Origin: Escherichia coli
Lineage (GTDB): Bacteria; Pseudomonadota; Gammaproteobacteria; Enterobacterales; Enterobacteriaceae
Length of the DNA stretch: 64,000 nucleotides
Strand: one strand, 5' to 3'
Assembly: GCF_050320075.1 (NCBI RefSeq)
Contig: NZ_CP190022.1
Positions 13,465-64,000 of this stretch are shown here, piece after piece (position 1 is the stretch's first letter; the number at the start of each line of letters is the position of its first letter). A program made the translations under genes and the position numbers. A model generated the notes under the pieces. The model searched no databases. It was not told the DNA's origin and was given only the letters and a program-made list of their open reading frames with translations.

Positions 13465-13993
13465 GGGGATTCCTCCATAGATGAATGGATAAATTTCGGG
13501 ATTAAGTCGGGTGGCATGAATGCGAATCAGCGCCGGTAATAACCGGACAGGAATGAGTTCAACAGGACATTTTCACAGAGAAGAGCGTGGGAGACAGGTA
13601 CAAAAAAACCGACTGGTGAGGCCGGTTTTTTTGCGATTCCGGGGTGGAGTTGGTGGCTCTGACCGGAGGAAGTCTCTTTTCAACTAACGTTACCAGAATA
13701 GCGTTATATTCACCTGATCGCAATCTGTCAGTTACAATCTATTATTCTGGGAGTAGCGATATCGCCTGAAACAAGTATAATCAGTAAGTTAGCCTTGTCT
13801 GGAGACTTACCTTCGCATCAATCCATCGGGACTATGGATCTGTGCTATTCAAAGACCTGGCCGGACAAACAGGTGGTGCTGTGTCTGGTGCTCTGGCCGG
13901 AGGAAGTCTCTTTTCAGCTAACAATGAGAGAGCTGTTGTGACAGGCAATGTAAGAGTAAGCAGCAGTGATTTCCTCCATTGACGGAGAAACGG

Positions 13994-14089
13994 ATGATTA
14001 ACCTGTTAATCATCGTTCTCAGGGCAGTTGTTGCTGTGGTCAATGCAGTGATAGCAATCCTGGAACTGATCCGGGAGCTTATTGACTGA
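13994..14089 (+). CDS. Small hydrophobic peptide (31 aa), candidate type I toxin-like ORF
   Basis: ggag RBS 6 nt before ATG; MINLLIIVLRAVVAVVNAVIAILELIRELID; followed by hairpin at 14108-14136; below the 60-aa track cutoff. Confidence 0.3.
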   Translation: MINLLIIVLRAVVAVVNAVIAILELIRELID

Positions 14090-14107
14090 TAATCCCGGAA
14101 ACGTACT

Positions 14108-16276: not shown

Positions 16277-16454
16277 ATGTATTCTGAGTGTTTTATGGTT
16301 ATGAGGCCTTCATCGGGTTATGCGAATAATCTGGTTCGGGGAGCAGTTGCTGTAAGCACAGAACCTGATAATATGTAAATCCTGCTGGACAGGGTAGGGT
16401 ATTTTTGTGAACTGTTTCATATAAATATCCATGCGTTGAAATGATCGTCTGTGT

Positions 16455-18011
16455 TTGTACAGGAAAATGACTGGCGTGTCTTGTATTAAAGAAAAATCAA
16501 AATATACTTTTGAGAGAGCAAAACAGTTTTATTTTATGTTGTGGTGTAAAGAGTCACTGATTTATCTGTTGTTTTCTGTGCTTGTTACATGGTGTTGCGG
16601 ATATACAGTGAAAAACACCCTGGGGAATGTGCTTATATTGTTCCTGATGTTGTTGTTGGGGCGGCAGAATGTTATTTCAGCAACGTGTGTCTGTATCTTT
16701 CTTTTGTTAAGTGCATTCTATGCTCCGGTTGGGATGATTTACGGAAAAATAAACAACAGTTTTATTGCGTCTGTAATGCAGACAAATCTAAATGAGGCAG
16801 GTGAATTTATCACAGGCATACCTGTTCTTTATTTTATTGTTTCACTGATTATTGCTGCTTTTACATTCTGGTTCTGGCGTAAGCGTGATAAAAGCCACCA
16901 GGGATTTATCTTTCTGTTGTTCTTTATCGTATTGTCAGTAAATGCATGGCCAAAACGTATGGTTACGAATGTAATGACAGGGATAGCTGAAACCAGAGAA
17001 GAAATGATGCGATATGAATCGCTGAAACACAATCAGAAAGATTCATGGGATATTGTGAATGTGGAGAAGAAATATAAAACCATAATTATCGTAATTGGTG
17101 AAAGTGTCAGACGGGATTATCTTTCTGTTTATGGGTATCCTTTGCCGACAACACCATGGTTGAATTCTGCTCCGGGTATATTTATTAATGGGTATTTCTC
17201 CGCAGCTCCGAATACGATAGGTTCACTCAGCAGAACACTGACTCTTGATTACACTGAAACAGGTAATCCGGGTAATAATATTGTTACGCTTGCCAGAAAA
17301 GCCGGATATGAGACGTGGTGGATATCAAATCAGGGCTCTTTAGGGCGACATGATACGCTGATTTCTGTCATCGCCGCCAATGCGGATAAGAAATATTTTC
17401 TTAAGGAAGGGAGCTCTTCTTCCCGTCGCATTGATGATGAAGATATGCTTCAGTATGTCAGGGAAGCTGTTAATTCGTCTTCTCCAAAAGTGATTTTCAT
17501 TCATATGCTGGGGTCCCATCCTAATCCCTGTGACAGACTTTTTAATGATGCACAGCCGTTCAGGGAATTATTCGGAAATAAAGTATCCTGTTATTTATCA
17601 ACATTGCTTAAGCTGGATCGGTTTCTTCAGGCAATTTATAACATGACGACAGAGCATGGCGATGATTTTGCCATGCTGTATTTTTCTGATCATGGGCAAT
17701 CCGTCACTTCAGACAGCACCCCTGTGCATCATGCGCCAGGTTTGCGTTCGGGATACGATGTACCTCTCATGATGATGGCCAGTGATATTACTGAGCACCA
17801 CCTCAATCATGTGCATATCAGTGCACGTCGTTTTCCCGAGATTTTTCAATGGATCACAGGGATACAAACCAAAAATCTGCCGTTAAGTTTTTCTTTGTTA
17901 CAGAATGATTTCGCTGAAAGTGTTTCTGTATTCAATGGTGAACGTGACGTTCCGGTAATGTCTTTGCCAGAAGAGCCGATACTGACCGGAAATGCTGAAT
18001 CAGAAAAATAA
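16455..18011 (+). CDS. Phosphoethanolamine-transferase-family (sulfatase-fold) inner membrane protein
   Basis: N-terminal TM helices, then IIIVIGESVRRDYLSVYGY, FIHMLGSHPNP and FSDHGQS motifs resembling EptA/LptA-type enzymes; low GC; exact start uncertain. Confidence 0.6.
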   Translation: MYRKMTGVSCIKEKSKYTFERAKQFYFMLWCKESLIYLLFSVLVTWCCGYTVKNTLGNVLILFLMLLLGRQNVISATCVCIFLLLSAFYAPVGMIYGKINNSFIASVMQTNLNEAGEFITGIPVLYFIVSLIIAAFTFWFWRKRDKSHQGFIFLLFFIVLSVNAWPKRMVTNVMTGIAETREEMMRYESLKHNQKDSWDIVNVEKKYKTIIIVIGESVRRDYLSVYGYPLPTTPWLNSAPGIFINGYFSAAPNTIGSLSRTLTLDYTETGNPGNNIVTLARKAGYETWWISNQGSLGRHDTLISVIAANADKKYFLKEGSSSSRRIDDEDMLQYVREAVNSSSPKVIFIHMLGSHPNPCDRLFNDAQPFRELFGNKVSCYLSTLLKLDRFLQAIYNMTTEHGDDFAMLYFSDHGQSVTSDSTPVHHAPGLRSGYDVPLMMMASDITEHHLNHVHISARRFPEIFQWITGIQTKNLPLSFSLLQNDFAESVSVFNGERDVPVMSLPEEPILTGNAESEK

Positions 18012-18103
18012 TAAAGATTATTTATGACCGAGCTCAATGCCTCATGTGTATGAGGCATTGAGCGTTTATTTCAGGCTGACACTGTTTTCAGCCCATACCT
18101 GGA

Positions 18104-18466
18104 TCAGTGAATATGCTGACCTGTTTTTTCGCGAATATCAGCCCCCTGTAATTGTATCAATATACCCTCTCCGTTGAGCATCAGGCTGTCCAGTGAATGG
18201 ATCCCACTCCTCCTCATCAGTTCGTAGCAGAGTGTACTCAGCATGGCAAGTGCAGCTTCTGATGATTTACAGTGTGTATTCAGGAGGGTAAAAAATTGTT
18301 CAAAAACATCCGGGTTTATACTGGTGCTTTGATATTCGTTACTCATAGTATTTCCTTCCAGGTCATTATTACTTCCAGATTTAACATGATGTCTGTAACC
18401 ATAAAATAATGAACGTGTTCCGGGAATCCTTGCCGTGTAGTTTCCCGTAAAAATACTGTTGTGCAT
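18104..18466 (-). CDS. Hypothetical protein (80-120 aa depending on start)
   Basis: ORF in the low-GC block; internal Met (MSNEYQST) may be the true start. Confidence 0.3.
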   Translation of the reverse strand: MHNSIFTGNYTARIPGTRSLFYGYRHHVKSGSNNDLEGNTMSNEYQSTSINPDVFEQFFTLLNTHCKSSEAALAMLSTLCYELMRRSGIHSLDSLMLNGEGILIQLQGADIREKTGQHIH

Positions 18467-18559
18467 TACATGTCATTAGGTGGAAACCGATTGTGGCAGA
18501 CTGAAAATCGATTAGAATAGCGGCGGGCGCTTGAGGCTGTATGCTGAAAGCGTTTTGTG

Positions 18560-18626
18560 GACGGCATGCAGCAGAAAGCCCCAGGCGATTTTTTTATCAA
18601 TCAACCCAGGGCCCACTGTAATGCCT
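18560..18626 (-). ncRNA. Putative Sok-like antisense RNA of the pnd locus (approximate)
   Basis: Perfect TATAAT on the minus strand (plus-strand coordinates 18633-18638) with upstream TTGCCT; would be antisense to the pndC start region; extent inferred. Confidence 0.25.
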
Positions 18627-18824
18627 CAACAACATTATAGTAGCCCGATGACGGCCGAAAGGCAATGGAGGGGCTGCGATGCCACAACGAACGTTTTTAA
18701 TAATGTTAATCGTCGTCTGTGTGACGATACTGTGTTTTGTCTGGATGGTGAGGGATTCGCTTTGCGGATTTCGTATCGAGCAGGGAAATACAGTGCTTGT
18801 GGCAACGTTAGCCTACGAAGTTAA
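18621..18824 (+). CDS. pndC: PndC (Mok-like frame overlapping pndA)
   Basis: Reading frame overlapping pndA in a different frame, as in hok/mok loci; start chosen at an internal Met. Confidence 0.35.
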   Translation: MPQQHYSSPMTAERQWRGCDATTNVFNNVNRRLCDDTVFCLDGEGFALRISYRAGKYSACGNVSLRS

Positions 18825-18831
18825 ACGTTAA
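18679..18831 (+). CDS. pndA: PndA, Hok-family type I toxin (50 aa)
   Basis: Hand translation MPQRTFLIMLIVVCVTILCFVWMVRDSLCGFRIEQGNTVLVATLAYEVKR; Hok signature SLC...R...G...V.A.LAYE; hairpin ggcggcaggaaatctgccgcc follows. Confidence 0.85.
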   Translation: MPQRTFLIMLIVVCVTILCFVWMVRDSLCGFRIEQGNTVLVATLAYEVKR

Positions 18832-19087
18832 CGGGCAACATGGCGGCAGGAAATCTGCCGCCGGATTGTTGCGAAAGCAAACCTCAATGCGCCCTTTTTT
18901 ACCTGGATTTCTGCAGCGCGTTTCAGCATAGCATGCAGTTCTGTGCTGATCCTTGCTTCCAGTCGGGCAGTTTGTGTTGCTGATGGCATGATTTGTACTT
19001 CCTGAATACACTGAACGTCAAATTGCCGTATTGTGCTAATTACAGTCTGATACAGGGACGGCAGACAGGCATTCTGCCTGAAAAGAA

Positions 19088-63299: not shown

Positions 63300-63846
63300 G
63301 ATTTACGCACTCTTGTAAGCCTTGTGGACGGTTTCGAGGCGGGCGAAAACCGACAACTCCTGCAAACAGGATTAATGGCTGGAAAATATATTACATAAGG
63401 ATGTATCTGTGGCAAGAGTTAATATAAGTAGTTGAATAGATCGTTATATTTGATAAATCAGCATATCATGCTGATTTGTGTGCAGTGTCTGGAGGATTAG
63501 ATCGTTTAAAAATTTTAGGCGATCTCTTCTACTAAAAATGATGAAAAATACAGCATAAAAGATCGTTTGTGAAATTGTTCATTTTTTGACACAGTTCAAA
63601 AAAACGACGCTTTTTCGGGGAGTTAAAGAGGGCCACTGTAACCCTGAGAAATCATGTCGGCTTTTCAAAGCGGTGGAAAAGGGGTATATTGCGGATCGTT
63701 ATGCAGTGGCTTTTGGGATCGTCAGGATCCGGGAAGTCAGAAAACGGCAGGATGCGCCATAAGGCATTCAGGACGTATGGCAGAAACGACGGCAGTTTGC
63801 CGGTGCCGGAAGGCTGAAAAAAGTTTCAGAAGGCCATAAAGGAAAA

Positions 63847-63897
63847 CCCCCACTATCTTTCGTCGAACTTTGGCGGGATCGTGAAAGATAGTGGGGG
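63847..63897. promoter_or_regulatory. Stem-loop with TTGGCG loop motif: candidate structure I / Inc RNA control element of an I-complex replicon
   Basis: Perfect 15-bp stem cccccactatctttc / gaaagatagtggggg around a 21-nt loop containing ttggcg. Confidence 0.5.
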
Positions 63898-64000
63898 CCT
63901 CACAGAATACGGGATAAGTATATATGAAACCGTGTCAGAGATTCAACCCTTTGCAGTGCATTAACGCACGGCAATTTGTTCCCGCCATAAGCGACAGCTT

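Follow-up and report, generated by a model that had tools for sequence, protein, structure and literature searches.

We found that the stretch of Escherichia coli DNA analysed here (64,000 nucleotides of contig NZ_CP190022.1, assembly GCF_050320075.1; "the window") very probably carries, at 18489-18900, an intact pnd (pndBCA) cassette, a type I toxin-antitoxin system that represents the hok/sok family on I-complex plasmids, and that the window is part of an IncK2/Z-type conjugative plasmid. An earlier note on this DNA had read 18531-18862 as a pndCA (hok/mok-type) locus and had proposed alignment with R64 pnd and R1 hok/sok as a check. We carried out both alignments and both matched, the first from end to end (~90%) and the second element by element, and a Hok-family match was present. 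The span proposed earlier lies inside the locus, but the true span is wider: it opens with the mRNA promoter (18491) and closes with the fold-back element and T-run (18882-18900). All the elements of the cassette were intact and conserved (two frames, two promoters, the end-pairing elements, the target hairpin and the road-block hairpin), and their combination was far above chance (123.7 bits for the Rfam model RF01794, and z = -7.3 for the fold of the 376-nt transcript). The conserved unit appears as a compact cassette of ~410 bp, since the homology with R64 starts at 18489 (the -35 of the mRNA promoter) and stops a few bases past the T-run (~18900). It is a textbook copy of a locus type that is already known, and nothing in it is new.

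The 50-codon Hok-family toxin gene of the earlier note was borne out. The open reading frame (ORF) pndA encodes the protein MPQRTFLIMLIVVCVTILCFVWMVRDSLCGFRIEQGNTVLVATLAYEVKR, and residues 7-46 of this protein matched the Pfam family HOK_GEF (PF01848) with an E-value of 1.7e-12 and 47.2 bits (cut-off 22). The best NCBIfam matches were to HokA and Hok-family models, both under their strict cut-offs. As the score against the HokA equivalog was 66.4 with a cut-off of 89, PndA is not HokA. When compared with the PndA of R64, 45 of the 50 residues were identical and 5 differed. The same DNA in the plasmid pHB42-5 is annotated as WP_021532728.1, 'Hok/Gef family protein'. The pnd system has been characterised since about 1990, and its ORF is routinely given this annotation in such plasmids.

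The relatives of the cassette point to the same plasmid group. The 431 bases around the locus were 100% identical to pHB42-5, an IncK2/Z conjugative plasmid of E. coli. The cassette (at least 80% of its length) was present in 1,839 plasmid records, nearly all of them conjugative plasmids of Escherichia, Salmonella or Shigella. Among the copies fetched, identity was ~96.6-97.8% for those of IncK2/Z and ~95.6% for the one of IncB/O type, while IncI1 and Igamma/K1 plasmids, including R64 (NC_005014, L002:4810-5227, aligned over 412 nt), were at ~89-90%. Cassette length and order of parts are shared with the pnd loci of the IncI complex (pndBCA/pndACB; R483 and R64 of IncI1, R16 of IncB and pCT of IncK), and the primers used for the pndACB knock-out on pCT hold a 40-nt stretch identical to 18580-18619 of the window (PMC4083329). 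The neighbouring genes are trbA, excA and traY, and the closest records were typed as IncK2/Z. At the end of the window there was an Rfam match (63839-63988, plus strand, 167.3 bits) to PK-repZ, the pseudoknot found where repZ of I-complex replicons is controlled. On account of these neighbours and the PK-repZ match, we take the window to be the transfer region of an I-complex plasmid.

The frames, loops and base pairs were compared across seven pnd alleles. The Mok-like frame that the earlier note had seen overlapping the toxin gene is indeed there (pndC, in another frame than pndA), although the TTG at 18531, from which the start coordinate of the note was taken, is not its start; the real start is the ATG at 18621. 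This ATG, the length of 67 codons and the offset of 58 nt to the pndA ATG were identical in all seven alleles, and the offset is the same as that from mok to hok in R1. The listed ORF at 18531..18824 (plus strand, 97 aa, TTG start) was conserved only in the part from ATG 18621. We rejected this longer frame as pndC. Its TTG is only 6 nt away from where the mRNA starts and falls within the element that pairs the 5' end; in addition, R64-type alleles have a 1-nt indel ahead of the ATG, by which the extension is broken and shortened from 35 open codons to 29. The pndC product had no Pfam or NCBIfam match, and it differed from that of R64 at 14 of 67 residues, against 5 of 50 for PndA. This faster change fits a frame that is important for being translated and not for its product.

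The leader of the toxin mRNA was matched by RF01794 over the full model (1-157) at 18525-18681 on the plus strand (E-value 9.5e-28, gathering score 59). Position 1 of the model is the known 5' end of the hok mRNA in the R1-type locus, and the model also matched the R1-type hok/sok leader in the same orientation (L010:400-576, plus strand, 88.9 bits). RF01794 carries the name 'sok antitoxin', and we considered the match as evidence for the antisense gene; this was rejected, as in R1 and in the window alike the model fits the sense strand of the toxin and has its end at the toxin AUG. In practice RF01794 models the hok-type mRNA leader and not the antisense RNA. The putative mRNA promoter has the same architecture in R64 (TTGTTG-16-TAGAAT). 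It agrees with the consensus at only 8/12 positions and was missed by our consensus scan for promoters and terminators (region 18400-19050, promoter threshold 9/12). A sub-consensus promoter fits hok/sok, for which low-level transcription of the toxin mRNA is implied by the need to keep the short-lived antisense in excess. For R1 hok/sok, only the sok promoter is termed strong (PMC1635323).

We folded the 376-nt transcript (18525-18900) by minimum energy, with the z-score taken against shuffles. In this fold the 5' end (18525-18535) paired with 18883-18894 (6 + 5 bp), and the pairing was kept in the seven alleles, except for one position that is unpaired in three R64-type alleles. The Shine-Dalgarno and start codon of pndA were paired with 18797-18814. 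The helix between 18643-18653 and 18826-18836, which we take by position and from the R1 model to correspond to ucb/dcb of hok mRNA, was present in the minimum-energy folds of both full-length and truncated RNA. Four pairs of the 5' leader hairpin vary one-sidedly across alleles (GC/GU/AU) and none is broken, while the stem of the antisense-target hairpin is invariant in all seven. The loop of the latter holds CUCA at 18625-18628, a YUNR (U-turn) motif as this was reportedly defined by Franch et al. in 1999. We also folded mRNAs truncated in silico from the 3' side (ends at 18880, 18866, 18862 and 18840), and the 5' end re-paired locally as in the Rfam structure. The fold of the full-length transcript corresponds to the closed form with paired ends that has been described for hok mRNA (PMC1635323).

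The hairpin that the earlier note placed after pndA was found as an 8-bp stem at 18842-18862. All eight pairs were invariant, and it aligned with the R1 hairpin GGCGGGC...GCCCGCC. In R1, trimming by 3' exonuclease halts at this hairpin after 39 nt are removed (PMC1635323). Since 38 nt separate 18862 from the end of the T-run at 18900, against the 39 nt trimmed in R1, we read the hairpin as a road-block and not as a terminator; it would probably determine where the processed and active form of the mRNA ends. A role of the hairpin as an intrinsic terminator was also considered and found no support: the next bases are GGAUUGUUG, with no U-run, and a conserved fold-back element lies further 3'. 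The T-run directly follows this fold-back element, which pairs in the fold with the start of its own transcript ~360 nt upstream. Homology with the R64, IncB/O and IncK2/Z copies stops within a few bases past the fold-back element and T-run. The full-length 3' end has been placed from the T-run and this limit of homology, and is to be taken as putative.

On the minus strand, the perfect TATAAT noted earlier was present, with coordinates of 18639-18634 where the note had 18633-18638, off by one. Its placement for an RNA across the pndC start also held, as a transcript that starts at 18627, 7 nt further on, would be antisense to the pndC ATG at 18621-18623. A TATAAT is by itself unremarkable (15 in the window versus 14.5 expected), and its weight comes from its position and its invariance in the seven pnd alleles, in which the whole antisense promoter region did not vary. 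A second hexamer, TACTAT, overlaps TATAAT by 3 nt; the putative -35, TTGCCT, has a spacing of 17 nt to TACTAT and of 20 nt to TATAAT, which has no other good -35. The predicted antisense RNA folded into a single-stranded 5' tail of 10-13 nt and one long stem-loop, and the corresponding R64 segment and a 64-nt R1 Sok segment folded alike. Published Sok has 64 nt, with an 11-nt tail and a stem-loop (PMC1635323).

Table. Elements of the pnd cassette in the window, in order of position
Feature	Position	Strand	Description	Basis
Putative pnd mRNA promoter	18491-18496 and 18513-18518	+	TTGTGG, 16-nt spacer, TAGAAT	Motif positions; R64 equivalent
mRNA 5' end, tac-like element	18525..18536	+	GGGCGCTTGAGG	RF01794 position 1 at 18525; 7 nt downstream of TAGAAT
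5' leader hairpin	18536..18572	+	11-bp stem (18536-18546 with 18562-18572)	Predicted fold; part of RF01794 structure
Predicted PndB-like antisense RNA	5' end 18630 or 18627, 3' end near 18573	-	~55-58 nt; 3' end after GGGGCUUUCU	Inferred ends
Antisense-target hairpin	18615..18641	+	9-bp stem with pndC AUG; 9-nt loop 18624-18632, CCUCAACAA	Fold and Rfam
pndC (mok-like)	18621..18824	+	67 codons from ATG; overlaps pndA in another frame	Conserved frame and offset
Antisense promoter region (putative)	18634..18665	-	TATAAT 18639-18634; TACTAT 18642-18637; -35 TTGCCT 18665-18660	Hexamer positions
Upstream box (ucb-like)	18643..18653	+		Predicted pairing with 18826-18836
pndA	18679..18831	+	50 aa; GGAGG Shine-Dalgarno 18667-18671	Pfam HOK_GEF
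Downstream box (dcb-like)	18826..18836	+	Spans pndA stop codon	Predicted pairing with 18643-18653
3' hairpin	18842..18862	+	GGCGGCAG-GAAAT-CTGCCGCC; stems 18842-18849/18855-18862, 5-nt loop	Fold; R1 alignment
fbi-like fold-back element and T6 run	18882-18894 and 18895-18900	+	CCTCAATGCGCCC; likely full-length mRNA 3' end	

These elements suggest the following course of events. The weak promoter at 18491-18518 would produce a stable mRNA of ~373 nt (18525 to ~18897), whose paired ends (18525-18535 with 18883-18894) and buried toxin ribosome-binding site, as predicted by folding, would keep it inert, by analogy with the work on R1 and R483. Exonucleases acting from the 3' end would slowly trim ~38 nt, up to the hairpin at 18842-18862, and the freed 5' end is predicted to refold locally. 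After refolding, the pndC start would be presented by the hairpin at 18615-18641, and translation of pndC (18621-18824) would permit that of pndA, as mok does for hok. The minus-strand promoter (18634-18665), whose architecture we observed, would be constitutively active and give a short-lived antisense RNA of ~55-58 nt (18630/18627 to ~18573). Its single-stranded 5' tail would pair with the loop of the target hairpin and with the start of pndC, so that translation is blocked and the duplex is marked for RNase III. After loss of the plasmid the antisense would decay first, and the stored mRNA would be translated into the 50-aa membrane toxin PndA, which would kill the cell (post-segregational killing).

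The hok/sok mechanism has been described (PMC1635323; PMC4147584). For the pnd system of R483, both post-segregational killing and regulation by an antisense RNA are established (Nielsen et al. 1991, as summarised in bioRxiv 10.1101/2025.08.07.668861 and PMC4147584). Killing induced by rifampicin and toxicity of the peptide are likewise on record for R483 pnd and other relatives. Further, pnd contributes to the maintenance of the IncI plasmid pESBL (PMC7602700), and neutralisation of pndBCA by supplying pndB cures an IncI1 plasmid (PMC5330492).

We also compared the cassette with hok/sok (parB) of R1. The R1 query was 100% identical to >2,600 plasmid records, and the locus was taken from pAPEC-O2-R (L010). 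At the 5' end, the two systems share GGCGCTTGAGGCT. They also have in common the ATG of mok/pndC, the ATG of the toxin with its Shine-Dalgarno, the 3' hairpin, and a fold-back element with T/U residues after it, and the antisense RNA predicted for the window has the tail and stem-loop of Sok. Counted from the ATG of mok or pndC, the sok promoter of R1 (TTGCGC-17 nt-TATCCT) falls at the same places as TTGCCT and TACTAT of the window. Similar to the likely 3' end in the window, the 398-nt hok mRNA of R1 ends 2-3 nt past its fbi (lengths from PMC1635323). However, the DNA is too dissimilar for a full-length blastn link, the R1 toxin has 52 aa where PndA has 50, and the -10 of sok is TATCCT where the window has TACTAT overlapped by TATAAT. 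Beyond its fold-back element, R1 also carries a further terminator hairpin, from which its 441-nt transcript results and which has no counterpart in the window. Other members of the Hok/Gef family with type I antisense logic are srnB/srnC and flm of plasmid F and the chromosomal hokA-E of E. coli (PMC4147584; bioRxiv 10.1101/2025.08.07.668861); their likeness to pnd of the window is by family description and by the match of PndA to the HokA model.

The antisense tail and the target loop vary among the alleles, and this is the only mildly new angle of the locus, its effect on cross-neutralisation being conjectural. Three alleles of the target loop were seen. The window has CCUCAACAA; the other IncK2/Z and the IncB/O copies, along with one of two Igamma/K1 copies, have CCUAGACAA; and R64 and the other Igamma/K1 copy have CUUCGACAA. 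At the same positions these read CUCA, CUAG and UUCG, and all of them retain Y-U-N-R. The exact 86-nt antisense region of the window was present in 5 of 1,886 plasmid records, so that the loop allele of the window is rare. The predicted 58-nt antisense segment differed from that of R64 at 7 positions, two of them in the 5' tail. It is conceivable, though we consider it unlikely, that these loop and tail alleles (CUCAAC, rare here, CUAGAC and UUCGAC) slow cross-recognition, and that PndB would then neutralise the pnd mRNA of other plasmids poorly. If this were true, pnd alleles would be plasmid-specific addiction 'locks', and curing vectors based on IncI1 pndB would be less effective on IncK2/Z plasmids. 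There is also a small possibility that antisense RNA starts at both 18630 and 18627, owing to the overlap of TACTAT with TATAAT, and that the two forms differ in tail length and activity. By its pnd cassette, the window can be recognised as a segment of a conjugative plasmid of the I-complex (IncK2/Z-type), one whose addiction module is very probably intact. Modules of this kind favour the persistence of resistance plasmids without selection and are targets of curing strategies that use the antitoxin RNA (PMC5330492), for which the 7 differences from IncI1 pndB over ~58 positions are of relevance.

Several observations weigh against the reading of an intact and working pnd cassette. The consensus scan called no sigma-70 promoter on either strand in 18400-19050, as neither the mRNA nor the antisense promoter attains its threshold. 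The only terminator-like site that it found in this region sits within pndA and is at chance rate. The scan supports neither the 'strong' antisense promoter of the earlier note nor a terminator role for the 3' hairpin. We saw no canonical intrinsic terminator after the pnd transcript (18895-18900 on to 19144), where the T-run is the sole candidate for a 3' end. In the minimum-energy folds of the truncated RNAs, the ucb/dcb helix did not open and the toxin ribosome-binding site was not released; as these helices stayed closed, the activation rearrangement rests wholly on the R1 and R483 literature. The seven alleles showed 15 compatible changes on one side of a pair and not a single compensatory double change. 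Of the cells, 96.4% were paired, versus 34-47% with the partners slid; the shuffle control was flat and uninformative (500/500). We dropped covariation as evidence, because the seven alleles are too close and show no double-sided changes. Finally, the knock-out of pndACB on the IncK plasmid pCT left stability unreduced (PMC4083329), which suggests that the phenotypic contribution of pnd may be redundant.

The pCT result could also mean that the cassette is intact in sequence yet a silent or redundant relic with no measurable contribution to maintenance. Deletion of pnd alone likewise had no effect on the stability of pESBL (PMC7602700), chromosomal hok loci are reported to be unable to mediate post-segregational killing (bioRxiv 10.1101/2025.08.07.668861), and both promoters here are sub-consensus. 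We nevertheless regard a relic as quite improbable, since all the elements are intact and conserved and ~1,840 plasmids retain the full-length cassette; on pESBL, moreover, an effect of pnd emerges once par and transfer are also removed (PMC7602700), which indicates redundancy and not inactivity. Very improbable, in our view, is a main selected role other than post-segregational killing, such as abortive infection of phage or competition between related plasmids. R1 hok/sok has been reported to exclude phage T4, and the three tail and loop alleles among I-complex plasmids, along with the rarity of the exact antisense region of the window, would be in line with such a role. But no sequence feature separates the roles, the same molecular mechanism would serve all of them, and the loop differences amount to 2 nt at the extreme 5' end of the antisense, which may be neutral.

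With post-segregational killing by an intact pnd cassette as the preferred reading, one detail of its mechanism is evenly balanced, namely whether the antisense RNA starts from TTGCCT-17 nt-TACTAT, the pair homologous to R1 (start near 18630), or from the perfect TATAAT (start near 18627). The spacing of 17 nt to TACTAT as against 20 nt to TATAAT speaks for the former, as does the R1-type pair at the same positions. Further, the hexamers 16-19 nt upstream of TATAAT match TTGACA at only 0-2 of 6 positions, and TATAAT has no TG of an extended -10. On the other hand, TACTAT matches the consensus at 4/6 positions and TATAAT at 6/6, and the scan called neither hexamer. Both starts are a G 7 nt downstream and both RNAs would cover the pndC ATG, so both hexamers may serve.

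The position of the cassette differs between plasmids. In both R64 and the window, pnd lies in the trbA-to-excA part of the transfer region, but at different insertion points. The order in R64 is trbA, pnd, a hypothetical gene and dqlB, whereas in the window it is dqlB ... a phosphoethanolamine-transferase gene, a hypothetical gene, pnd and excA. The small hypothetical gene upstream of pnd (18104-18346, minus strand) resembles, by eye, the 83-aa R64 gene downstream of pnd (L002:5225-5476), with the motif ALAML...LM.RRGI in common. As the apparently related gene is upstream here and downstream in R64, pnd flanks it on opposite sides in the two plasmids.

The window is distinct from pHB42-5 itself, in comparison with which it has ~1.9 kb extra directly upstream of pnd (16412-18335). 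Within this segment, ~500 bp upstream of pnd, there is a 518-aa ORF (16455-18011, plus strand) similar to phosphoethanolamine transferases. It resembles CptA/EptA and scored far under every MCR family cut-off. In JML285_P3, a gene annotated 'phosphoethanolamine transferase' is found at the same place.

On the other side of pnd, the window has lost ~0.7 kb between two CCYGGATTT repeats (junction at 18902-18910), and the 3' end of pnd is untouched. In pDETEC45 (L011), intact genes for a GNAT toxin and a DUF1778 antitoxin lie between pnd and excA. A 53-codon ORF directly downstream of pnd in the window (18989..18828, minus strand) matched the TacA1/DUF1778 antitoxin profile over its first ~30 residues (E-value 4e-4); it is the stump of a type II toxin-antitoxin pair.

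Further upstream, an Rfam match to AgrB was seen at 13600-13687 on the minus strand (52.8 bits, gathering 40), ~300 bp upstream of the dqlB ORF, which encodes a DinQ-like type I toxin (~13995-14090, plus strand). Copies of the 20-nt repeat CCGGAGGAAGTCTCTTTTCA (13656-13675 and 13899-13918) are found in the small RNA of AgrB type as well as in the leader of the toxin. The dinQ/agrB-like locus (dqlB and the AgrB-type RNA) is a second type I toxin-antitoxin system, 4.5 kb upstream of pnd.

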